This document shows, piece after piece, positions 1-64,000 of a stretch of DNA of 64,000 nt. Source of the stretch: Mustelus asterias (lineage: Eukaryota); the NCBI RefSeq assembly GCF_964213995.1, contig NW_027590170.1, forward strand, positions 868,001-932,000, in the 5' to 3' direction. Each line of letters starts with the position of its first letter. The stretch's first letter is position 1. The notes under the pieces are model-generated. The model worked only from the letters and a program-made list of their open reading frames with translations, was not told the origin of the DNA and searched no databases. Both the position numbers and the translations under genes were made by a program.

Positions 1-230
1 ATGGTTAGTGGTTGGGTAGTCCTATTGTCTTTCGACAGCATTTGAGTTACAACACAGCAGATTTACTCAGCAACTCATTTCGAAGGCAATTTTGGGATGA
101 TTGTAAATGAACAAAGACTATGCTGATGATGGAACTTTTCCTCACAAAACAACGCAGAGTTTTTGACAAAGTTTCTGCCTGATTTCGAAGCATCGGACCA
201 ATATGTAACAACTGCCGCGCATTGGCAAGT

Positions 231-304
231 GGGCCAGTAGCACAATGGATCATGCATCTGACTGTAAGTCAGAAGATTCCATGGTTTGATTCCTCGCTGG
301 CTCG
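231..304 (+). pseudogene. tRNA-Arg(ACG)-derived pseudogene; anticodon loop now reads GTA
   Basis: GGGCCAGTAGCACAATGGATCATGCATCTGACTGTAAGTCAGAAGATTCCATGGTTTGATTCCTCGCTGGCTCG aligns with vertebrate tRNA-Arg(ACG). The T-arm/B-box is damaged. Both flanks are homologous to the flanks of the intact copy at 48803. Confidence 0.8.
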
Positions 305-744
305 GCGTAAACTTTTAAACTATGTTCACAAATTCCATGTTACTTTCGATAAGAGAGTTGACTTTATAACTTTAGACCGATTGAGATAAATGCTGACGAA
401 CTTTAGTCAGCTTCTCTGGAGAAGTTAATGTTATCTAATTGTTTTTCAACAGAAGCCGACTATTTTAAGTTAAATTCTACGAAAGATTTGCATTAAGTAA
501 GTTTAAGACATTAAATGAATGTTAATCTCAAATGCATTTTTGAGATAATTCAAATTACCTTAGAGAATTTACACAATTTTGTAAAATTTGCGTCATAACA
601 TTCAGCATTTCTGATTTTGAAGTAACATTTGAGCCGAGGTCAGAGCAAAGATAAGATGGCTGCAACATCTAGATTCGGATAATGTTCAGCAACAAGCTGA
701 AATCACGCAGATTTCCCTCACCCTGCATGAGAAAGCTTAAAGAA

Positions 745-4940: not shown

Positions 4941-5543
4941 ATGCTTATTTGAGATTGACCATAGCCAGCTTTTAAACAAAGTCAACTATTTTTAAATGGA
5001 AGAGATTGAATTGTAATCTGCTAGTTATATTGAGCCTTTTTGGCTATGGGTGTGAAATATTCAGGCGCATAAATTTCGGCCATCTGTAGGAAATCCCATT
5101 TGATCGGCACTGAGTCTCGATTTCCTCATCTACCTGAGTGTTTTTTTCCTGTGTTTTTGTTATGAAGAACGAATTTAAAAACCATTCTTCTGGAAAATGT
5201 GCGCCATTTCCCTCAGTTTACTGCCAGTATCATTTGTGTCTGTCTTTTTGAGCACACACTATTTGACATGTTTCAGGTGTGATTAACTATGTTAGTCTGC
5301 ACCTATAAACACATTAAATTTTGTTGGATACTGAACGAGATGCTAAGTGTGCACGTCGTCAAAATAGAGACGTTTCTTTCCTGACAATGCATGAGAAATC
5401 AGCGTTTCTTATTTAACAGGAAGAATTTGAGGCATGGAGCAGAGCAAAGATAATACAGCTGTAACATAGAGATTAGGGTAATGTTCAGCAGCAAGCTGAA
5501 ATCATGCAGATTTCCTTCACTCTCTTTGAGAAAGCTTAATGAA

Positions 5544-5616
5544 TACTTCTGCCTGGTTTCGAACCGTGCACTTGTCGTATGTGAGGCGAAGGTGACAACC
5601 ACTACACTACACAAAC
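5544..5616 (-). pseudogene. tRNA-Val(CAC)-like pseudogene
   Basis: Reverse complement GTTTGTGTAGTGTAGTGGTTGTCACCTTCGCCTCACATACG...GGTTCGAAACC; A/B boxes retained, acceptor stem mismatched. Confidence 0.8.
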
Positions 5617-6447
5617 AAGTGACAGCTCAGCGCCGCCAATTGGCCTGACTACAATGCTCAATTCTACTGCGTTGTTGCAGGTTCGGATGGTTAGATTGAG
5701 GACCCATGTCACTTAATGTAAGAACACATCTGTTACTTTCAACCTGATATCTCAACTTTTCTAGAATCTCAAAATTGAAAAAGGTTCATCCGGCAAATAT
5801 CTAAGCGAGCAATGATTTCTTTGTCATTAATGTATCATTCTCATCTTCCGTCGAATAATTGCAACCAGTTATACCCAGTATTTCTCGTTTTACAACATTT
5901 ATTATCAATACATTTATTTAACACATATGTCATTCTGAATTGCATATCTCTGAAATATACAACGTTGTATGCAACATGACTAAATCTCATTCATCTGTAG
6001 GAAGTCCAGCAGGTTCCTACTGATTCTTGATTTCGTCATCTGTCTGAGTGGCTTTTCCTATTTTTTTTATCAAGAAGAACAATTTTAAAAAGGATGCTTC
6101 TGGGAAATATATGCCATTTCCTCTAGTTCAGTTACAGTTTAAATTGTGTCTGTCTTATGGCAGACTACTATTCGAAATGTTTCTCATGGTGATCAACTTT
6201 GTTAGTCTGTACCTGTAAACTCATTCAATTCTGCTGTGGACTGAACGAGTTGCGAATATGTGCACAAACAATGCAAACATTTATTTGCTGCCATTGCTTC
6301 CTAAAATACAGAATTTCTGATTTTCCTAAAGACATTTGAGGCCGAGGTCAAAGCCAATATAATATGGATGTAACATCGAGATTCGCATGATGTTGGGCAA
6401 TGAAATTAAGCACACATCGCTCACGCGTAATGAGAAATATCCAACAG

Positions 6448-20654: not shown

Positions 20655-23159
20655 TCTGTATGAGAAATAATGACGGTTGATCACAGGGACTCTCTGTGAC
20701 AAGGTCCAATAAATCCACATTTATACTATTGGAAATCTATAGGGAGGCAATTAAATTCTACAACTATTTACAGTTTGTTGAACAAACTGATTGAGCAGTA
20801 ACTTCCCATGATCATTCAGGGAGGGGTTTAGAATGCTTCGAGACCACAGGGAGCTGCCGATCCGTGCAGTCTAACATAGTTTAGAATTAATTAGTTAATA
20901 CTTGCGCAAATGTAAGACATGCTTATCATGTGGAATATTCATTATTTGGTATTGCTTAAGAAATATGATAGCCATGAGGCTAAAACCAGCATGGCTCAGT
21001 GACATTAGAACAGAAGAGAATCGGAATGGCAATGTAAGTCATATGCTGTCGAATGTACTCCCATAACTGAAGTAAAAGTCACCTGCAACACATAGTTCCT
21101 CACAAAAGGTAAGTTATTTCCACACAGTATAAATGATGCTGGCAGTAGCCAAAGGTCATCCACACCAGAGAACCTGCACTCTCACACCATTTTTACGCAT
21201 TTACCCAGCACGCGAAACATCATAAAATTGTCCAACGCGCATCACGTGGGAGCGTCAACAAAGTTCAGACTGAAAAACATATGGAAATTATCAGATATGT
21301 TTTATACAGTCCTAGGCCTCTTGATTATTACAGTCATTTCTTTCCAAATTTATGTTTCGCTGAACCACATTACTATTGTGCTGGTCAGGCCCTCCTTGGA
21401 CATTGCATGAGGCACTGTTTCTGATGGTTCGCAAGTGAATAAAGGCATAAGATTCCACAGATCTGAATAAAAACAAACTTTACTATACACGATTAGAAAG
21501 GTAAAACAATTTACAATATGTGGAAGGTAAAACATTCAATGGCTTTAGGGAGGAATGGTAGATGAGATGTTAGTTTACAAGGGCATGTGACAAAGACTTG
21601 TTTGAGAAGTTGCTGATGACAGTGTATTTGAAGGAGAGAGGGAGCTATTCACACCACACGCAATCTCTCTCTCTCATTCTCACACGTACACAAGGTGATT
21701 AGGACGGTAAATACATGGGGTTACGGGGATAGGGCCTGGGTGGGATTATTGTCGGTGCAGGCTTGATGGGCCGAATGGCCTCTCTCTGCACTGTAGGGAT
21801 TCTATAATCACAGAAACTGCTGATATCTAACTGGAGTGCATGGTGATTTGTAACGACAATGAATCTTTATTTTTTATTAATTATAACTCCGCTTTGGAAA
21901 GTAATTAAACAATGCCAGCTATCCAGTAGTTACATTGCCACATCGTTAAGTTTTTCATCTGTTAGCTTCACTAATTTGGGCGAAGATGTGCTGAGTGGTT
22001 TGTTGTCCATGAAAGGATCACATGTTCCAAATATTACAACCCTCCGTCGACATACTTTTCATGTTCCCTCTTTCTGTCCTTGAGGTGAAGACTCACCATC
22101 AGTAGTGGAAGAATCAGCAGAAGAGCGGGAATATCGTCTGGTGACGGACAGTCGATGTTTCCTGATAGTCTGGGGATTGAATTCACTCAACAACTCTGTA
22201 AGGAATGAAGGTGGTCGACACAGATGAAATAAAGGACCTGGTTCAATTAATGAAGTACACGAGAACAAAGGGGAGAATGTAGAACAACGTCTTTCGGGCC
22301 CATCTATGGATATATCCATCAATTCATTCATTGATCCCGGAAACAAAATGTCATGGCATCCAAATGTCACTGTTTGTTACATTACCCCCATCACCTCTTT
22401 ATTTTATCGGGCAGACAGTGGCATATTATTAATGGAACTTGACCAGTAATCGAGGTGCCCGGGATAATGCTGTGGCGACATGGGAACAAATCCCATCAGA
22501 GGAGGTGGTGGCTTTGAAGGCAATTAGAATGGAATTTGGAACTAACAGTTGTCATGGGAACCTCTCTGATTCACCAGTGAAGGGAATCCTCCATCGTACC
22601 CTGAACTCAACTATATTAGTCTCCAGATGGAGGGCAATATGACTAACTCTTCAAAATGTATCCTCTGCCTTATAGTCTGCTTGTATTTCCTGTTAACCAT
22701 CAACCCATCCATCAAATGTTATGATATGTTGGCGTGATCCTCCAAAGGACTGTTGTTGCTAAGAGGGACAATATAAATTGAATAACTGCCACTTATGTGG
22801 CTGCAATATACTTTGACTAAATATGCTTTCGTGGTAATATAATTCTTTCACAATTCTGCAGCGCTCTGCATACGATCAACACCACTGGATTTTCTTTTGG
22901 ATTATGCTTCAAATTATTTCAATAAGAAGATCCTGAGTCTTCAGCAGTGTTAAGTTTGACATGTGGATTGGAAATAATGGTTGCATCCCTGATGAAAACA
23001 GATGACTTGAAGTTTTCGTTTATCAAAGCAACAGTTTAACCCTCATGTTTGGCAACAGATGTATGCAGTTAATACATTTTTGGTATTTTTATTCCTTCAC
23101 TGTCCTTGCTATTTGGACAGCGACATAATTGCCACTCCTCCAATTTGAGGCAGTTTGGT

Positions 23160-23249
23160 GGCTTGTTGGTCGAGGGGTATGATTCTCGCTTTGGGTGTTT
23201 AACTGTACAAGCTTGCGAGAGGTCCCGGGTTCAAATCCCGGACAAGCCC
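23160..23249 (+). tRNA. TRNAP-UGG: tRNA-Pro(TGG) with 18-nt intron (23196-23213)
   Basis: Removing TGTTTAACTGTACAAGCT after G37 gives a 72-nt sequence nearly identical to vertebrate tRNA-Pro(TGG). Acceptor stem GGCTTGT/ACAAGCC is paired; B-box GGTTCAAATCC is intact. Confidence 0.9.
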
Positions 23250-23257
23250 GTATTTAT

Positions 23258-23600
23258 GGGTGGCACGGGAGCACAGTGGTTAGCACTGCTGCTTCACAGC
23301 TCCAGGGACCTGGGTTCGATTCCTGGCTTGGTCACTGTTTGTGTGGAGTTTGCACATTCTCCTCGTGTCTGCATGGGTTTCCTCCGGGTGCTCCGGTTTC
23401 CTCCCACAGTCCAAAGATGTGCGGGTTAGGTTGATTGGCTGTGCTAAAAATTGCCCTTAGTGTCCTGAGATGTGTAGGTTAGAGGGATTAGTGGGTAAAT
23501 ATGTCGGGATATGGGGGTAGGGCCTGGGTGGGATTGTGGTCGGTGCAGACTCGATGGACCGAATGGCCTCTTTCTGTACTGTAGGGTTTCTATGATTCTA
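23258..23600 (+). mobile_element. Full-length HE1-type tRNA-derived V-SINE
   Basis: tRNA-like head (gcacagtggttagcactgctgc...gggttcgattcc), V-domain (tgtgtggagtttgcacattctcc...gggtttcctccgggtgctccggtttcctccc) and CR1-like tail ending ttctatgattcta. Confidence 0.9.
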
Positions 23601-23692
23601 GTTTTCTGAGTATTGAACATCACTGGCCGTCGAGGAATTAATCAGACGATTTTATTTAAATTGTAGGACGGCTCAGATTTGATCTGATTAGA

Positions 23693-42048: not shown

Positions 42049-42138
42049 GGCTCGTTGGTCTAGGGGTATGATTCTCGCTTAGGGTACCTCGCCCCATTAG
42101 CATGCGAGAGGTCCCGGGTTCAAATCCCGGGCGAGCCC
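42049..42138 (+). tRNA. TRNAP-AGG: tRNA-Pro(AGG) with 18-nt intron (42085-42102)
   Basis: GGCTCGTTGGTCTAGGGGTATGATTCTCGCTTAGGG[TACCTCGCCCCATTAGCA]TGCGAGAGGTCCCGGGTTCAAATCCCGGGCGAGCCC. Exons are essentially canonical vertebrate tRNA-Pro(AGG); TTTT terminator at 42141-42144. Confidence 0.93.
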
Positions 42139-44935: not shown

Positions 44936-45021
44936 AAAACATATCTGCCCAGAAATAGCCAGGATTAGTTGGCAAGAAATGCATTTGCCAATGTTGGACA
45001 CCTAAGTGTTAAAATAAGCCG

Positions 45022-45094
45022 CATCCCAGAAGTGACTCGAACACATGCTCCCTGGTTTAGGAAGCCAGTGCCTTACGCGTTAGGTTACTGGGAC
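45022..45094 (-). pseudogene. tRNA-Arg(CCT)-like pseudogene
   Basis: Reverse complement GTCCCAGTAACCTAACGCGTAAGGCACTGGCTTCCTAAACCAGGGAGCATGTGTTCGAGTCACTTCTGGGATG resembles Arg(CCT); D-loop GG lost and T-stem mismatched. Confidence 0.75.
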
Positions 45095-47849: not shown

Positions 47850-48802
47850 GGTTCAGTGAGCTGCCTGGATGTTTCTTTTTGTTCATGTGGGTGTCGCTGG
47901 CTAGATCAGCATGCACTGCCCATCAGTATTTAGCCTTGAGAAAGTTGTGGTGAGCTGCCTTCTTGAAACGTTGTAATCCATTTGTACAGGAACACTTACA
48001 GTGCTGTTAGGGAGGGAAGTCCACGAATTTGTCCCAATGACAGTGAAGGAACGGCGATATATTTCCAAATCAGAATGCTGAGGGAATTGAGGGTGGTGTT
48101 GGCTGTGTGGCGTTGGAGGGGGGAGGGGGGAGAGGGGGCGGGGGGGGGGGTGGCAGGGGAGCTGCCAGGTGGAAGCGGTCTTGGGTTTGGGAGATGCTGT
48201 CTAAAGTGCCTTTGGTGGATTCCTGCATCATGCAGACAAGTGGAGAATATTCTATCGCACTCCTGACTTGTGCCACGTCGATCGTGGACTGTTTTGTGGG
48301 AGTCGGGAGGTGAGTTACTCCCACAGGATTCCCATCCTCTGCCCTGCTCTTTTAGCCACTGAATAAACTGATAACATGCGTGCTGAGTCAGAATAGGTGT
48401 GTCTTCTTTCCTGCTCAGTTTGTCGTGAATTTTCCGCACTTTTGTCTTTTCCTGAATGTATTTTGAGGCTCAAGTAAGGGCCAATGCCATATGATTGTAA
48501 GATACTACATTCAGGTAATATTCAATCGTGGATTCACTAGCGGGAGGGGTACGGTTTCGAGTCATGTTGTTGACGCTGGATTGATAAAGCAGAGAAGCAG
48601 GCTGAAGCTTTGGGAACCAGGGTTCGAATTCCAACACAGCAGATTAACTCAATTCAAGGCAAAGTAGAATTACTGTAAGTGAGTAGAGAAAATTTTAATT
48701 ATGTAATATTTCCTCACTAAAACGAATATGTTTTGACCATGTTTCTGCCGATTTTGAAGCCTCGGACCGATATATAAACATTGCTGCACGCTGCTTTGCC
48801 GT

Positions 48803-48875
48803 GGGCTAGTGGCGCAATGGATAACGCGTCTGACTACGGATCAGAAGATTCCAGGTTCGACTCCTGGCTGGCTCG
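48803..48875 (+). tRNA. TRNAR-ACG: tRNA-Arg(ACG)
   Basis: GGGCTAGTGGCGCAATGGATAACGCGTCTGACTACGGATCAGAAGATTCCAGGTTCGACTCCTGGCTGGCTCG; canonical apart from a U5.G68 wobble. Confidence 0.95.
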
Positions 48876-50583
48876 GTGTGATAATTTAACAGTAGTTCAC
48901 AAACTCCATGTTCGTGTGGGTGAAAAATGTGTGTTGACAAATTTTGGACCAATTCAGAGAAATGTTGACCAAATGCAGTCAGCTTCTGTGATGAAATTTA
49001 TCTTAGCCAATGATTGTTCAAAAAAATGTTGACTATTCTAAGAAAAAAAATACTGATAAACTTCAATTAAGTTTTTTTTTAAAAAATAGTTTATTTAAAT
49101 GACGAATTCTCGTTAAAGTATTCGGGGAAAATATGTTAGCAAGTTTAAGCTACTCTTTAAAAAGTTGGAAATTTCTCGAAAAATATGAGGAAACATTACA
49201 TTTTTCAAAATGGTGAAAACATTTTCTAAAAAGTTGATGAACTCTGATTAAACATGTTTAATTTTAAGAAGCAAAATACACAGAAATGTTTTTTAAAAGT
49301 TGACAAATTTCAGTTAAATCAGATGGAGGAATTTCTTTGGAGTAAGTTTAGTTTTGAAAAGTTCAAATTAGCCAGAAGTTTCTGGTTTGTGATGCTGGGA
49401 TTGTTGTCCATTGGAGCGAAGGAGATTGAGGAGCGATTTAATCGAGGTGGACTAGATTAGGGCAAGTTTAGAGGGGGAGGGGCAAATTTTAAGATATTGG
49501 GCAAGGCGGGGGCGAAGAAGATTTGGAAGCAACATTTTTTCCACAGCGAGTGCTCAGGACCTGGAACTCATTGCCTCCGAGAGTTTTGGATGAGGTCAAT
49601 TTAGGTAATAGAAATTCTGAGGTGGACATGGACTTCCTGAGAAAGAAGATGGGTCTCCAGGAACATTCTTTAGGCAGGTAGATGGATCTCCTCGGTGACA
49701 TTGAATCTGAAGATCAACCTGTGGAAGCACACCCCTTCCCCGGCCACCGCCCCCACCCACTGTTGAGAACAGTACAGCACAGGAAACAGGCCCTTCGGCC
49801 CTCCAAAATGTTTGACAAGAACCCCGCTGATATTAAATGCAAGGGCATCAAAATCAAAAAGGGTATTTTGGAACATTCGTTCTTCGTTGTAGATATTTTC
49901 AATTTCATATAACGTGAAAAAGGATATGCAAAATATTCAGACTGTTGAATGGGAACTCCCGACATTGTTACAAGGACAACATTAACCATTTACCTCATTG
50001 TCACCACCTCAGAAGCTGTCTTGGCTCAAGGGCCAACATTGCGGTGAATCCTCGTTTCGGTCCCGCTGTGGGGAAAACAACTTCATTGATTCACTGGCCC
50101 TGCTCTGACGTAATAAACTGGAGAACAAAGGGTCTGTGAGCTGATTGGATGAATTGGAGAATCAGGGACATGATTGGACGTCACCAGTTGATTCGTTTGG
50201 GAATTAACCAATCGCTGGAGAGACCGGAAATACATGTAAATATCTTCACCCAAACAATTACAGATTGAACCCATTCTGTTTAATTCCGCAATAAACTCGC
50301 TGCAAACATGTTGGGTATCATTTTGTATTCGTTTCTCACTGTTTCAGCTCTTTTGCCTGGTAAGTCTACAAGGGACATAAACTTCTTCTTGCAAGCGATG
50401 TCGACAGTAATTTGGGTCCGCTTTGCTGTAGATGATAATGTGATCCGTGTTCTGATGTTATGAGTTACAATAGAATGATAATAACACCTTAACTTTCAAT
50501 ATTTCTAAATTTCTGCCGGTGTCACTACTGGAGACTCAATATCAAAGGAGCCGGTTACAGCGATGAAGTTTGAATGGGACTCA

Positions 50584-56019: not shown

Positions 56020-56092
56020 GTATCAGTAGTGTAGTTGTTATCACGTTCGCCCCCAACGCAAAAAAGATCCCGGTTTGAAATCAGGCAGAAAC
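56020..56092 (+). pseudogene. tRNA-Val-like pseudogene
   Basis: GTATCAGTAGTGTAGTTGTTATCACGTTCGCCCCCAACGC...; multiple lesions. Confidence 0.75.
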
Positions 56093-56939
56093 ATTCATTA
56101 AACTTTCTCATGGAGGGTGAGGTATGTCTGTATGATTTCAGTTTCTTGCTGAATATCATCGGAATCTCGATGTTACAGCCACATTATCTTTGCTCTGACC
56201 TCGGCCTCAAATGCTTTCTCCAAAATCAGAAATGCTGAATTTTATGACGCAATGTCAGGAAAGAAACGTTCCTATTTTGACACCGTGCACATATTAGCAT
56301 CTGCTTCAGTTTACACCAGTGTTTAGTTGGTTTAATAGATGCAGACTAACATAGTTAATCACCATCTGAAACATGTCTAATAGTGATGAGTGCTCAGAAA
56401 GACAGACACAAGTGATGCTGTAAGTGAACTAAAGGAAATTGCACACATTTCCCGGAGCATTCTTTTTTGAAGATCGTTCTTCATAATAAAGAAATAGAAA
56501 AAAAAACACTCAGACAAATGAGAAAATCGAAACTTAGTGCGGATTTGTTGGACTTTCCTATCGATGGACGGAATTTTTTAAGCGCCTGAATGTTAGTTAC
56601 ATATATTAACCGGTGACTCGATTCCTTTTGTTGGTCAGTTATGTTCGACATAAAATGTTGAATAACGACAAATACTGGATATAACTGGTTGAAATTATTC
56701 GACGGAAGATGATAATGATGCATTAATGATTGAGCAGGAATCATTGCTCCCATAGACATTTCCCAGACGAACGCTTTTGAATTTTGAAGTTCAAGATGAG
56801 TTGAGATATCAGGTGGATAGTAACGGAGTTGTTCTTGTATTAAGTAACATGGGCCCTAAATCTAACCATGAGAACCTGCAGCAAAACAGTGGAGTTGAAC
56901 ATTGTAGTCAGGCGAATTGGAGGCGTGGTGCTGTCTCTT

Positions 56940-57012
56940 GTTTCTGTAGTGTAGTGGTTATCACATTTGTTGAACACGCGCAAGGTTTCTGGCTCGAAAC
57001 CGGGCTGAAACA
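56940..57012 (+). pseudogene. tRNA-Val(AAC)-like pseudogene
   Basis: GTTTCTGTAGTGTAGTGGTTATCACATTTGTTGAACACGCG...; anticodon arm damaged. Confidence 0.78.
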
Positions 57013-57720
57013 TTCATTAAGCTTTCTCATGTCGGGTGGGGGGAATCGATATGATTTCAGTTCGTTGCTGAACATTATCCGAATCTCGATGTTACAGCCA
57101 TATTATCATTGCTCTGACCTCGGCTTCAAATGTTTTCTGGAAAATAAGAAATGCCGATTTATTTTTGACGCACTGACAGAAAGAAACGTTTCGATTTTGA
57201 CGCAATGCACATAATAGCACCACGTTCAGTCTACAACAGAATTTAATGGGTTTATAGGTGCAGACTAACATCGTTAATCACCATCTGAATCATGTCCAAT
57301 AGTAGGGTGTGCTCTAAAGGATAGACACAAGTGATACTGCAAGTGAACTAGAGGAAACGGAGCATATTTCCCAGAAGAATCCTTTTTAAAATCGTTCTTC
57401 ATAACAAAGAAATAGGAAAGAAGACTCAGACAGATGAGGGAATGAAGACTCAGTCCGGATCTACTGGACATTCCAAAAGATGGCCGGAAATTATGCGCCT
57501 GAATATTTCACGCCCATAATAAAAAGCTCAAGTGTAACTCACAGATATCTTTTCAATCCCTTCCATTTAAATGTGGTTGACTTTGTTTGAAAGCAGACTA
57601 TGGTCAATCAAAAAAATTGCGATCTGTATTACCCGGTGATTCGATTCCCTTTGTTTATCAGTTATGTTTGCAATTGAGTGATATTCAATTTCAGAAATAT
57701 TCTATTCATAATGAAGACAT

Positions 57721-58535
57721 ACAGAACAGTACAGCACAGAACAGGCCCTTCAGCCCACGATGTTGTGCCAAGCTTTATCTGAAACCAAGATCAAGCTATC
57801 CCACTCCCTATCATCCTGGTGTGCTCCATGTGCCTATCCAATAACCGCTTGAATGTTCCTAAAGTGTCTGACTCCACTATCACTGCAGGCAGTCCATTCC
57901 ACACCCCAACCACTCTCTGCGTAAAGAACATACCTCTGATATCCTTCCTATATCTCCCACCATGAACCCTATAGTTATGCCCCCTTGTAATAGCTCCATC
58001 CACCCGAGGAAATAGTCTTTGAACGTTCACTCTATCTATCCCCTTCATCATTTTATAAACCTCTATTAAGTCTCCCCTCAGCCTCCTCCGCTCCAGAGAG
58101 AACAACCCTAGCTCCCTCAACCTTTCCTCATAAGACCAACCCTCCAAACCAGGCAGCATCCTGGTAAATCTCCTCTGCACTCCTTCCAGCGCCTCCACAT
58201 CCTTCTTATAGTGAGGTGACCAGAACTGCGCACAATATTCCAAATGTGGTCTCACCAAGGTCCTGTACAGTTGCAGCATAACCCCACGGCTCAGAAACTC
58301 CAACCCCCGTTAATAAAAGCTAACACACTATAGGCCTTCTTCACAGCTCTATCCACTTGAGTGGCAACCTTTAGAGATCTGTGGATATGGACCCCAAGAT
58401 GTCTCTGTTCCTCCACAGTCTTCAGAACCCTACCTTTGACCCTGTAATCCACATTTAAATTAATCCTACCAAAATGAATCACCTCACATTTATCAGGGCC
58501 TACCAAAATGAACCACCTCACATTTATCACATTTA
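57721..58535 (-). mobile_element. CR1 LINE in a tRNA-Val unit, with a ~32-bp tandem duplication at its 5' truncation
   Basis: ORFs 57791-58303 and 58291-58617; cctaccaaaatgaa(t/c)cacctcacatttatca is repeated at ~58466-58529. Confidence 0.92.
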
Positions 58536-58873
58536 TATGTGTTAAATAATGCATTGATATTAAATATTGAAACAAATACTGAGTACAATTGTAAAATGAG
58601 CTTTGACAAAGTATCATCTGGACTCGAAATGTCAGCTATTTTCTATCCTTACAGGTGCTGCCAGACCTTGTGAGATTTTCCTGCATTTTCTCTTTTGGTT
58701 TCCGATTCCAGAATCCGCAGTAATTTGCTTTTATTACGGAGTACAAATGGTTCAGATTATTCGAAGGAAGATGTGAATGATGCATTAATGAATGAGCAGA
58801 AATCATTGCTCCCTCAGATATTTGTCAGACGAACCCTTTTAAATTTTAAAGTTCCAGGTAAGTTGAGCAATCA

Positions 58874-59697
58874 GATGGAAAATTGGGCGGAGAAATGGTA
58901 GATGGAATTTAATCCAGATCAATGCGAAGTGATGCATTTTGGAAGAACGAATGTCGGGGGGAGTTATACAATAAACGGCAGAGCCACCAAGAGTATAGAA
59001 ACACAGAGGGGCCTAGGTGTGCAAGTCCACAAATCCTTGAAGGTGGCAGCACAGGTGGAGAAGGTGGTGAAGAAGGCATATGGTATGCTTATCCTTATAG
59101 GACGGGCTATAGATTTTAAAAGCTGGAGTCTGATGTTGCAGCTGTATAGAACGCTGGTTAGGCCACATTTGGAGTACTGCATCCAGTTCTGGTCGCCGCA
59201 CTATCAGAAGGACGTGGAAGCTTTAGAGAGAGTGCAGAGAAGGTTTACCAGGATGTTGCCTGGTATGGAGGGTCTTAGCTATGAGGAGAGATTGGGTAAA
59301 CTGGAATTGTTCTCCCTGGAAAGACGGGAATGAGGGGAGACCTAATAGAGGTGTACAAGATTATGAGGGGTATAGATAGGGTGAACAGTGGGAAGATTTT
59401 ACCCAGGTCGGAGGTGACGATCACGAGGGGTCAAGGGCTCAAGGTGAGAGGGGCGTGATATAACTCAGATATCAGAGGGACGTTTTTTTGCACAGAGAGT
59501 GGTGGGAGCCTGGAATGCGCTGCCAAGTAGCGTTGTGGAGGTAAACACGCTGGCATCGTTTAAGACTTACCTGGATAGTCACAGGAGCAGTCTGGGAGTG
59601 GAGGGATACAAACGAATGGTCTCGTTGGACCAATGAGCGGCACAGGCTTGGAGGGCCGAAGGTCCTGTTTCCTGTGCTGTACTGTTCTTTGTTCTTT
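58874..59697 (+). mobile_element. CR1 LINE in a tRNA-Val unit
   Basis: ORF 58902-59333; ttgttctt tail; related to the 4.1 kb element but with a short 3' UTR. Confidence 0.92.
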
Positions 59698-59821
59698 GAA
59701 AGTAATGGGTACCTTCCTGAAACAAGTGACATGGGCTCTCAGTCTAACCATTGGAACCTGCAGAAATACAGCGCAGTTGAACATTGCAGGAAGGCCGATT
59801 TGCTGTAGTCTGCTGTCAGCA

Positions 59822-59894
59822 GTTGCTGTAGTGTAGTTGCTATCATGTTCGCCTCACACGCAAGCGGCCCCGGGTTTGAAACTGAGTAGAAACA
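59822..59894 (+). pseudogene. tRNA-Val(CAC)-like pseudogene
   Basis: GTTGCTGTAGTGTAGTTGCTATCATGTTCGCCTCACACGC...; A and B boxes mutated. Confidence 0.78.
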
Positions 59895-60662
59895 TTCATT
59901 AAGCTTTCCCATGCAGGGTGAGGGAAACCTGTGTGATTTCAGTTCGTTCCTGAACATTATCCGAATCTCGACGTGACAGCCATATTATCTTTGTTCAGAC
60001 CTTGGCCACAAATTCTTTCTGCTAAGTAAGAAATGCTGATAGTTTTTTGATGCACTGGCAGGAAAGAAACGTTTCGATTTTGACACCGTGTATATATTCG
60101 CATCACGTTCAGTCTACAACAGAATTTAAGGGGTTTATAGGTGCAGACTAACATCGTTATTCACCATCTGAAACTTTTCTAATCGTAGTATGTGCTCCAG
60201 AAGACTGACGCAAATGCTACTGTAAGTGAACTAGAGGAAATGTTGCACATTTCCCAGGAGAATCTCTACTGAAACAGTTCTTCATGACAAAGAAATAGGG
60301 AAAAAAACCATTCAGACAGATGAGGAAATCGAGCCTCAATGCGGATCTAGTGGACTTTCCAATAGATGGCCGGAACTGATGCGCCTGAAAGTTTCACGCC
60401 CATAATAAAAAAGGCTCCACTGTCACTAACAGACAATTCTTCAAAGTCTTCCATTTAAATGTGGTTGACTTTGTTTAAAAGCTGGCCATAGTCAATCTCA
60501 AAATTGTGATCTGTATTACCCGGTGACTCGATTCATTCTGTTGCTCAGTTATGTTTGCAATTCATTGACGTTCACTTTCAGAGATATCCAATTCATAATG
60601 AAGACATATGTGTTAAATAATGCCTTGATACTAAATAGTGAAACAAATACTGAGTACAATTG

Positions 60663-60806
60663 CACAATGAGCTTTGACAAAGTGTCGTCTGGACTCGAAA
60701 CGCCAGCTCTTTTCTCTCCTTACAGATGCTGCCAGATCTTGTGAGATTTTCCAGCATTTTATCTTTTGGTTTCAGATTCCAGCATCTGCGGTAACTGGCT
60801 TTTATT
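60663..60806 (+). mobile_element. 144-bp short element with a degenerate hammerhead-like head; copies also at 58592-58735, 62167-62310 and 63393-63523
   Basis: Perfect 14-bp TSD ACTGAGTACAATTG at 60649-60662 and 60807-60820; absent from left-array units and from the 56.6 kb unit. Confidence 0.85.
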
Positions 60807-61106
60807 ACTGAGTACAATTGGTTGAGATTATTCGAAGGAGGATGAAAATGATGCATTAATGAATGGGCAGAAATCATTGCTCCCTCAGATATTTGCCAGA
60901 CGAACGCTTCTAAGTTTTGAAGTTCAAGATAAGTTGAGCAATCAGGTTGAAAGTCGCGGTTATCTTCCCGACACAAGTCACATGGGGGTAGGGGGGGGGG
61001 GGGTGGCGGAGGAGAGGGGGTTCTCAGTCTAACCATTTGAACGTGCAGCAATACAGCACAGTTGAACATTGCAAACAGGCCGATTTGCTCTAATGTCACT
61101 CAAGCT

Positions 61107-61179
61107 GTTTCTGTAGTGTAGTGGTTCTGACGTTCGCCTGACACGCGAAAAGTCCCCAGTTCAAAACCACGCAGAAACG
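61107..61179 (+). pseudogene. tRNA-Val-like pseudogene, anticodon GAC
   Basis: GTTTCTGTAGTGTAGTGGTTCTGACGTTCGCCTGACACGCGAAAAGTCCCCAGTTCAAAACCACGCAGAAACG; T-stem broken. Confidence 0.8.
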
Positions 61180-61349
61180 TTCGTTAAGCTTCTTCATGTC
61201 GTGTAAGGGAAAATTGCTTAATTTCAGTTCGTTGCTCATCACCATGCGAGCCTCGATGTTAAAGGCGCGTTATCCTTGCTCTGACATCACCCTCAAATGC
61301 TTGCTGTAAAATAAGGAACAGGCCGATTTGCTGTCGTCACTTATCAGCT

Positions 61350-61422
61350 GTTTCTGTAGTGTAGTGGTGATCACGTTCACTTCACACGCGAGAAGTCCCC
61401 GGTCCGAAACCGAGCAGAAAAA
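61350..61422 (+). pseudogene. tRNA-Val(CAC)-like pseudogene (short 243-bp local duplication)
   Basis: GTTTCTGTAGTGTAGTGGTGATCACGTTCACTTCACACGCG...GGTCCGAAACC. Confidence 0.8.
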
Positions 61423-62576
61423 TTCATTCATCTTTCTCATGTAGGGGGAGAGAAATCTGTATCATTTCAGTTCATTGCTGAACATTATCCGAATCTCGAT
61501 GTTACAGCCATATTATCTTTGCCCTAAAGCTGGGCCTCAAATGTTTTCTATAAAATAAGAAATGCTGATTCATTTTTTGACACACTGACAGGAAAGAAAC
61601 GTTTCGATTGTGACACATATTCGCATCTCGTTCAGTCTACAACAGAATTTAATGGGTTTATAGGTGCAGACTAACATGGTTAATCACCATCTGAAACATA
61701 TCTTATAGTAATGTGTGCTCCAGAAGACTGACACAAGTGATCTACATGAAAGACACTCATTTCCCACAAGATTCTTTTTTGAAATCGTTCTTCACAACAA
61801 AGAAATAGGGAGAAAAAAAAACTCAAACAGATGAGGGAATCGAGACTCAGTGCGGTTCTCCTGGACTTTCCTATTAATGGCCAGAATTTATGCGTCTGAA
61901 TGTTTCACGCCCATTATAAAAAAGGCTCAAGTGTCACGAACAGATAATTCTTGAATCTCTTCCATTCAAATGAAGTTGACTCTGTGTGAAAGCTGACTAT
62001 GTTCAATCGCAAAATTGCGATCGGTATTACCCGGTGACTCGATTCCTTCTGTTGGTCAGTTATGTTTGCAATTCAATGATATTCAATTTCAGAGATATTC
62101 AATTCATAATGACGTGTTAAATAATGCATTGATGCTAAATATTGAAACAAATACTGAGTACAATTGTAAAATGAGCCTTGACAAAGTGTCATCTGGACTT
62201 GAAACGACAGCCCTTTTCACTCCTTACATTTGCTGTCAGAGCTTCTGAGATTTTCCAGCATTTTCTCTTTTGGTTTCCTATTCCAGCATCCGCAGTAATT
62301 TGCTTTTATTACTGAGTACAGTTGGTTGAGATTATTCGAAGAAAGATGAGAATGATGCATTAATGAATGGGCAGAAATCATTGCTCCCTTAGATATTTGC
62401 GGGACGAACGCTTTTAAATTTTGATGTTTGAGATAAGTTGAGCAATCAGATTGAAAGTAACGGTTATCTTCCTGAATTCAGTGACATGGGCTCTCAGTCT
62501 CACCATCGGAACCTGCAACAAGACAGCGGAGTTGAACATTGCAGATAGGCAGCTTTGCTCTAACGTGTTTTAGGCT

Positions 62577-62649
62577 GTTTCTGTAGTGTAGTGGTTAACA
62601 CATTCGCTAAACACGCAAATAGTCCCCGCTTCGAAACCAAGTAGAAGCA
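62577..62649 (+). pseudogene. tRNA-Val(AAC)-like pseudogene
   Basis: GTTTCTGTAGTGTAGTGGTTAACACATTCGCTAAACACGC...; stems damaged. Confidence 0.78.
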
Positions 62650-63789
62650 TTCATTAAGCTTTCGCATGTCGTGTAAGGAAAAATTGCTTGATTTCAGTTA
62701 ATTGCTCAACATTATCCGAAACCCGATGTTAATGGCATGTTATCATTGCTCTGGCATCACTCTCAAGTGTTTTCTGTGAAATAAGAAACGATTTTTTTTT
62801 GACGCACTGACAGGAAAGTTCGATTTTGACACCGAACACATATTCGCATCTCGTTCAGACTACAACAGAATTTAATGGGCTTATAGATGCAGATTAATAT
62901 GGTTAATCACCATCTGAAATATCTGATAGTAGTGTGTGTTCAAAAAGTGATACTGTAAGTGAATTGGAGGAAATGGCGCACATTTCACAGAAGAATCTTT
63001 TTTAAAATGGTTTTTCGTCACTAAGAAACAGGAAAAGACACTCAGGCAGATGAGGAAATCGAGACTCACTGCGGATCGACTGGACTTTCCTGTAAAGGGC
63101 CGGGATTTATGCGCCTGAATGTTTCACGCCCGTAATAAAAAAGGCTCAAGTGTCACGAACAGATAGTTCTTGATTCTCCTCCATTTAAATGTCGTTGACT
63201 TTGTTTAAAATTTGACGATAGTCAATCTCAAATTTGCGATCTGTATTAGCCGGTGATTCGATTCGTTCTGTTGGTCAGTTATGTTTGCAATTCAGTGATG
63301 TTCAATTTCAGAGATATTCAATTCATAATGAAGACATATGTGTTAAATAACGCATTGATATTAAATATTGAAACAAATACTGTGTACAATTGTACAATAA
63401 GCTTTGATAAAGTGTCATCTGGACTTGAAACGTCCGCCCTTTTCACTCCTTACAGGTGCTGCCAGACATTGGGAGATTTTGCAGCATTTTCTCTTTTCTC
63501 ATCCGCAGTAATTTGCTTTTATTAATGAGTACAATTGATTGAGATTGTTCGAAGAAAGATGGAAATGACGCATTAACGAATGGGCAGAAATCATTGCTCC
63601 CTTAGATATTTGCCAGAAGAAGGATTTTGAATTTTGATGTTCGGGATAAGTCGCAGAATCAGATTGAAAGTGACGGTTATCTTCCTGAATTCAGTGACAT
63701 GGGCTCTCAGTCTCACCATCGGAACCTGCAGCATCACAGCGTAGTTGAACATTGCAGACAGGCAGATTTGCTCCAGTGCGATTACAGCT

Positions 63790-63862
63790 GTTTCTGTAGT
63801 GTAGTGGTTATCACATTCGCCTAACACGCGTAAGGTTCCTGGTCCGAAACCAGGTAGAAACA
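63790..63862 (+). tRNA. tRNA-Val(AAC), best-preserved copy, function doubtful
   Basis: GTTTCTGTAGTGTAGTGGTTATCACATTCGCCTAACACGCGTAAGGTTCCTGGTCCGAAACCAGGTAGAAACA; T-stem paired, but T-loop reads TCC instead of TTC and there is one anticodon-stem mismatch. Confidence 0.6.
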
Positions 63863-64000
63863 CTCATTCAGCTTCCTCATGCCGCGTAAGAGAAAATTGA
63901 TTGATTTTAGTTTGTTCCGAATCAGTTTCCGAGCCTCGATTTTAACGGCATGTTATCATTGCTCTGACGTCACCCTCAAATGCTTTCTGTGAAATAAGAA

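Follow-up and report, generated by a model that had tools for sequence, protein, structure and literature searches.

A probable retrocopy of an intron-containing tRNA-Pro(UGG) precursor joined to a SINE, from a large family of intron-bearing proline tRNA genes in Mustelus asterias

The segment at 23154-23603 of the window (the whole 64,000-nt stretch of Mustelus asterias DNA analysed here) is probably an unspliced pre-tRNA-Pro(UGG) and a SINE that entered the genome as a single 450-bp unit, the likely route being retrotransposition of an RNA that joined the two. Its tRNA part derives from a big family of proline tRNA genes with introns at position 37/38, which are likely removed by TSEN/RTCB. 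Using exact two-motif patterns in the species' own 3.68-Gb genome, we found 170 intron-bearing Pro genes (61 AGG, 90 TGG, and 19 CGG). The Pro introns are likely a spliced class outside the four usually listed for animals. The features of the locus, and the partner gene in the window, are as follows.

22793..23153, no strand: left flank of the target site; paralogs that lack the insert match it at about 90% identity
23154..23603, + strand: whole inserted unit (leader, pre-tRNA, trailer, and SINE), 450 bp, missing at the paralogous sites L177 and L178
23154..23159, + strand: six bases from the left breakpoint to the tRNA, a short leader, perhaps partly a target-site duplication (the duplication is not established)
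23160..23195, + strand: tRNA-Pro 5' exon, 36 nt, anticodon TGG at 23192-23194, variants U5 and G13
23196..23213, + strand: intron, 18 nt, at the canonical position 37/38, its 3' part pairable with U32-G35
23214..23249, + strand: tRNA-Pro 3' exon, 36 nt, B box intact, variant A68
23250..23257, + strand: short trailer ending in T3, without T4; its first 6 nt equal the trailer of the family-B member L127
23258..23600, + strand: full-length tRNA-derived SINE on the same strand as the tRNA, 78-89% identical to other copies over about 340 nt
23604..23690, no strand: right flank of the target site, joined to the left flank in the empty paralogs
42049..42138, + strand: partner tRNA-Pro(AGG) gene with an 18-nt intron (42085-42102), family flank, and T4 terminator

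An earlier note on this DNA had read 23160-23249 as a tRNA-Pro(TGG) gene with an 18-nt intron at 37/38, and this reading was confirmed by the sequence, by Rfam RF00005, and by intron-aware ARAGORN. The RF00005 match, in which the loop carries 21 inserted nt, scored 47.9 bits (E = 3.8e-07); the cloverleaf is normal in this model, with every stem paired, once the intron (23196-23213; TGTTTAACTGTACAAGCT) is removed. ARAGORN with introns on returned Pro(tgg) i(38,18); without the intron option, it miscalled the segment as Lys(CTT). The 3' exon motif occurred twice in the window and never in 100 shuffles. The exons differ from the commonest exon letters only at U5, G13, and A68; the U13G change, absent from the earlier note, forms a G.U pair in the D stem. 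Both the A and B boxes are intact. Two further features are absent from the earlier note: within 40 nt 3' of 23249 there is no terminator of T4 or longer, and the SINE comes next, beginning 8-10 nt 3' of that position. The intron is of the canonical type in lying between nt 37 and 38 and in being short (18 nt, where canonical introns span 6-133 nt), and U32.G is present at the A-I position, that is, a pyrimidine at 32 with an antepenultimate purine. The anticodon UGG on a Pro body falls outside the recognised metazoan set of GUA/UAU/CAA/UCU. A match of the intron to C2141 was discarded, as it is not a tRNA.

The same note had compared this intron with that of the partner AGG gene. The two are indeed divergent, mostly in the 5' part (7 of 18 bases in common, and 3 of the first 11); the register G16.U32, A15-U33, A14-U34, and C13-G35 is readable from the TGG gene; and the base opposite position 34 (intron position -5) is U in the AGG gene and A in the TGG gene, as had been claimed. 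The acceptor pair U5-A68 is likewise present in 23160-23249.

We regard 23154-23603 as one inserted unit because its flanks are directly joined at L177 and L178, where homologs of 22793-23153 and 23604-23690, about 90% identical, are separated by 2 bases. In the search for empty sites, the 260 nt upstream matched seven places and the 91 nt past the SINE matched four, with the window and its twin counted; L179 and L180 hold the left flank only and are uninformative on this point. The boundaries of the unit sit at transcript ends, with the 6-nt leader and the T3-ending trailer around the tRNA and the 3' tail of the SINE at the right end. No clear target-site duplication was found; one 5-mer is repeated at the two ends, but two of its five bases are different in the empty paralogs. 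The sequence upstream of 23160-23249 scored 21-26 against the flanks of families B and C, compared with a null maximum of 34 and within-family scores of 81-182. The SINE, in our assumption, resembles shark HE1. A weak match between the focal upstream and that of L011 (score 47; maximum of 200 shuffles, 40) was set aside, and the idea of a DNA-level duplicate related to L011 was dropped, once the empty sites at L177 and L178 were known.

Of the 142 distinct Pro genes, 11 have a SINE head no more than 18 nt away, or 10 if the twin is left out; the expected number is 0.19. Among these SINE-joined copies the junctions differ, the upstream scores to the family flanks are 19-33 (null maximum, 34), and L032 and L109 are 5'-truncated. 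The Pro copies L001, L002, L004, L005, L008, L032, L033, L104, and L109, with or without the intron, abut a same-strand SINE head; in L001 the leader and first bases are repeated.

The closest relative of the inserted tRNA is L186, a decayed copy that has 17 of 18 intron bases in common with 23196-23213, already carries U5 and A68, and has the flank of family B (score 203; focal upstream, 17). The U5-A68 pair of 23160-23249 was therefore inherited from the source lineage. In the course of events that we propose, a family-B Pro gene would have been transcribed by Pol III, the pre-tRNA would have been joined to SINE RNA by template switch or ligation, and the joined RNA would have been inserted by a LINE reverse transcriptase.

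The tRNA and the SINE may instead have been inserted sequentially. A different history is very unlikely, namely that 23160-23249 originated by DNA duplication as a live Pro(UGG) gene under its own selection, with the SINE added afterwards and the unit deleted from the paralogs. It would suit the intact cloverleaf and internal promoter and the mere three exon changes, all of them pairing-compatible, but it has to account for a left breakpoint 6 nt ahead of the tRNA, a right one at the tail of the SINE, and a copy that has neither the family flank nor a terminator. The acceptor stem bears on it in both directions: 11 of the 12 copies with C5T also have G68A (75 collapsed units, Fisher p 0.0005), but this co-occurrence reduces to about three events, G68A occurs alone in 14 copies, and U5/A68 was inherited, as L186 shows. 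The earlier view of 23160-23249 as a second selected gene is thus unsupported, the tRNA and the SINE being a single inserted unit. Judged from its sequence, 23160-23249 is more likely a slowly decaying retrocopy, though its cloverleaf and internal promoter could still allow transcription.

The earlier note had also held that the intron is a family-wide feature and not a one-off lesion, which is supported in this genome by the 170 intron-bearing genes against 10 intronless ones. These counts come from exact two-motif patterns applied to the whole genome, where no intron-bearing GGG gene was found and the reversed-pattern controls gave 0 matches; they are lower bounds, and some of the genes counted may be haplotype duplicates (a twin of the focal region is 99.4% identical to it over 6 kb). 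A relaxed scan of 312 kb added one intronless gene, one CGG intron gene, and three decayed copies. The 180 genes collapse to 132 intron-bearing and 10 intronless distinct contexts. In the 132 distinct intron genes, the exons are unchanged in 47 (27 of these also have T4), carry at most one change in 80, and carry four or more in 23; T4 occurs within 30 nt in 76. Seven of the 10 intronless genes have unchanged exons and T4. The introns have diverged over at least eight flank-defined lineages. Exact searches with motifs for the four usual classes gave 63 matches for Arg-TCT, 59 for Tyr, 44 for Ile-TAT, and 12 for Leu-CAA (178), so that Pro accounts for 170 of the 348 intron-bearing matches across the five classes searched.

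Several members of the family were observed in passing. L006 (1477-1566, -) and L007 (1480-1569, +), on C19, are two single-copy AGG genes lying close together; their exons are intact, both have the U20C change, their terminators are good, their introns are very diverged, L006 is mismatched at 34:-5, and the two are candidates for the oldest intron-bearing loci. L034, L037, L038, and L039 (C3, C4, C10, and C17) are intact intronless Pro genes and possibly ancestral vertebrate loci; they lie on large contigs, apart from the clusters of intron genes, and some of them form close pairs or a trio. The TGG copies L012, L022, L027, and L131 have in common a deletion of the 3' acceptor strand and have nevertheless been duplicated. 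The main CGG family (L043-L058) has a private exon change, U16, which is a usable mark for spliced reads.

One intronless locus bears on splicing. The Pro gene L031 has a 43-nt trailer that is identical at 38 of 43 positions to that of an intron-bearing TGG gene; the trailer matches at 34 or more positions in 15 of the 132 intron genes, and at 9-20 in the other nine intronless genes. Past the trailer, identity falls to 12-14 of 57, and the next feature is a fragment of a LINE reverse transcriptase in sense orientation (RVT_1, E = 1.7e-11). Upstream of L031 no homology was found. This arrangement suggests that L031 is a retrocopy of a spliced precursor, which would point to precise splicing, at one locus; the alternative is an origin from an intronless source gene that has been lost. 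Among the sequencing runs listed in a search, none of RNA contained the sequence, and those from other organisms contained only small shares of it (0.07-0.18), which are not taken as evidence of expression, habitat, or spread. The sequence immediately preceding the retrocopy (L031, 1445-1479) is a perfect 15-bp inverted repeat whose arms are 5 nt apart; it may be a mark left by repair during insertion.

We propose that the introns of the Pro family would be spliced in vivo by the ordinary TSEN/RTCB pathway and that precursors would occasionally be joined to SINE or LINE RNA and reinserted, 23154-23603 being one such event. Selection for an anticodon-intron helix would be weak, with -5 following 34 in three big 18-nt families and not elsewhere.

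The helix was studied in 68 distinct anticodon-plus-intron types. The base was pairing-compatible at -4 in 67 types, at -6 in 65, and at -3 in 61, and position -7 was mismatched in 56; all 14 lineage representatives have A at -4 and a pyrimidine at -6. Position -5 against N34 gave 48 Watson-Crick pairs, 7 wobble pairs, and 13 mismatches, and -5 was the best Watson-Crick match to N34 of the 13 positions tried (48 of 68 types; the next, 32). Over 52 distinct 18-nt rows, 34:-5 was UA in 22, AU in 17, CG in 5, UG in 4, and other in 4, and the register was 93% paired, with no within-family constraint and a helix that is marginal in folding. The slid controls (26-49% versus 92%) speak for the whole cloverleaf and not for the helix, the search pattern itself fixes the anticodon stem, and the shuffle control for pair counts ignores relatedness.

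In 23160-23249, the register lies at -0.9 kcal/mol relative to an open loop with P(34:-5) of 0.12, and the minimum-energy fold pairs the intron with itself instead. The median P(34:-5) over the 68 types was 0.08, so the helix is thermodynamically marginal, and the register beat 95% of intron shuffles in only 22 of the 68. Folding was rejected as support for the helix (whole-gene z of -1.16, and a differing minimum-energy fold). The within-family substitution test, in clusters of six or more genes with 17-nt introns excluded, gave no signal of constraint (4.8 changes per column in paired columns and 5.2 in others; Fisher on transitions, p 1.0). A weak conserved anticodon-intron helix is likely, and the tracking of wobble base 34 by intron position -5 is suggestive only.

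The covariation proposed in the earlier note holds in part: the three big 18-nt families fit, with A-U, U-A, and C-G, but the family with 13-15-nt introns fails (2 Watson-Crick, 3 wobble, and 7 mismatched among 12 types). Since the 34:-5 counts come from three amplified families, they represent only about two anticodon changes. The accompanying prediction of G at -5 in Pro(CGG) was borne out in 14 of 19 genes and in one diverged CGG intron, but in the main CGG family U stands at -3 in all 15 genes, so that the U32:-3 pair, which is the A-I pair, is missing and U.U occupies its place.

That the 34:-5 match reflects chance and shared descent in three amplified families, with only the purine-pyrimidine pattern at -3, -4, and -6 under selection, is quite possible, if somewhat short of an even prospect. 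The small number of anticodon changes among the big families and the mismatches in 7 of the 12 13-15-nt types are what it would lead one to expect, as is the recent switch from U34 to C in L041 and L053, which left -5 unaltered and the pair uncompensated. Collapsed units fit 34:-5 in five of eight cases (binomial p 0.027), but in three of six (p 0.17) when the two families that prompted the covariation idea are removed. What descent and chance explain less readily is that -5 was the best of the 13 positions, that the diverged CGG intron retains G there, and that only one change at -5 occurred within the 18-nt families; 9 of 14 hand-picked lineage representatives also fit (permutation p 0.024), though these are not independent. 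A broader alternative holds that the intron genes are mostly a passive expansion by segmental duplication, that the 10-11 intronless genes supply tRNA-Pro, and that the inserts are poorly spliced or unspliced. The good state of those intronless genes (7 of 10 with unchanged exons and T4), the many decaying intron copies, the absence of within-family constraint on paired columns, and the CGG family without an A-I pair all agree with it, but the insert is always at 37/38, exons are unchanged over lineages whose flanks no longer align, the bases at -4 and -6 are uniform in kind across all the representatives, and L031 looks like a spliced product. We consider this alternative improbable, and prefer a family whose introns would be removed by TSEN/RTCB.

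Other tRNA observations were made in the window and the genome. tRNA sequences form a dispersed cluster in the window (230-306, 5543-5617, 45021-45094, 48802-48876, and 56020-63863), and many of them are decaying Val-like copies; the copy at 230-306 was called Tyr(GTA), yet it resembles the Arg(ACG) gene at 48802. Intron-aware ARAGORN called nine intron-bearing matches Ala(AGC), and the three inspected (L016, L018, and L068) are Pro(AGG). A single tandem array at G000:C7:40238239-40358049, repeating every 1445 bp, contains 46 of the 59 matches to intron-bearing tRNA-Tyr. At L003:1390-1700, decayed Tyr-like, Pro (with intron), and Arg-like tRNA sequences are a few tens of bases apart.

The focal copy, probably a retrocopy, is the least important part of these findings, and the family matters more. 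We put forward only tentatively, as rather doubtful in its full form, that cartilaginous fishes have a fifth animal tRNA-intron class, which was gained in tRNA-Pro, came to occupy all three isoacceptors, and tracks the wobble base. It would make up about half of this genome's intron-bearing tRNA genes, explain much of the reported shark expansion, and tie proline decoding (perhaps 34/37 modification) to TSEN, and its pre-tRNA/SINE and pre-tRNA/LINE chimeras would record unspliced and spliced intermediates. If true, intron and intronless genes for the same mature tRNA-Pro, with three anticodons and 68 natural intron variants, would be a ready test set for the substrate rules of TSEN, U.U at the A-I position among them, and for intron-dependent modification, and the isotype behind much of the shark excess of intron-containing tRNAs would be named. 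For annotation, intron-blind scans miscall intron-bearing Pro genes.

In the available part of PMC12530127, metazoan introns are described as prevalent in Tyr-GUA, Ile-UAU, Leu-CAA, and Arg-UCU and 'essentially absent' elsewhere, and the portion of PMC12168002 at hand agrees with this four-class list. All four classes also occur in this genome, in the numbers given above; Pro is absent from that list, whereas 170 such genes are present here. On that literature statement alone, we favour a gain of Pro introns in this lineage over loss elsewhere. An expansion in sharks of tRNA loci that carry introns has been reported (bioRxiv 10.1101/2025.06.08.657570); the main text names no isotype (0 matches to proline, Pro, or tRNA-Pro), and its Fig. 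3A or supplements may give a breakdown. Literature searched by title or abstract start, with GtRNAdb, subscription papers, and supplements outside its scope, yielded no description of tRNA-Pro introns in sharks or other vertebrates, and the available parts of PMC8450103 and PMC11408192 contain nothing on vertebrate Pro introns. Automated shark genome annotations may already hold intron-bearing Pro genes. The mechanism is already known; Pro as the intron host, and the scale, appear unreported in the literature covered. The gain and persistence of tRNA introns are treated as an open question in the parts of PMC4090602 and PMC10275265 available.

Saccharomyces cerevisiae has 10 intron-bearing tRNA-Pro(UGG) genes (PMC4090602, available part), which share isotype and anticodon with 23160-23249. 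Those genes are fungal, and here AGG and CGG genes bear introns too; the likeness noted is one of isotype and anticodon. In chimeras of noncoding RNA and retroelements (U6/L1 and tRNA/LINE-1; PMC13174262, available part), a Pol III RNA lies 5' of a retroelement in one unit, as here. In humans, tRNA/L1 chimeras mostly consist of antisense tRNA halves and have 9-19 bp duplications, whereas the unit described here has a complete pre-tRNA, intron and trailer included, that is joined in sense orientation to a SINE, and it shows no clear duplication.

Among the closest known systems is the canonical eukaryotic intron at 37/38, processed by TSEN and RTCB. According to the available portions of the sources, tRNA introns must be removed before the tRNA is used (PMC4090602), the A-I pair and the anticodon-intron helix are standard for canonical introns, and TSEN measures from the tRNA body and chiefly needs the A-I pair (PMC10485636, PMC10275265). 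Strengthening the anticodon-intron helix has been reported to impair splicing (bioRxiv 10.1101/497545, available part); the marginal stability found here fits that report, and is no support by itself. As far as those portions of PMC10275265, PMC10485636, and bioRxiv 10.1101/497545 go, the Pro introns are like canonical ones in position, length range, U32 with a purine at -3, N33-N35 pairing, and a weak helix. They differ in that the host is Pro, in three isoacceptors, and in that U.U occupies the A-I position in the main CGG family.
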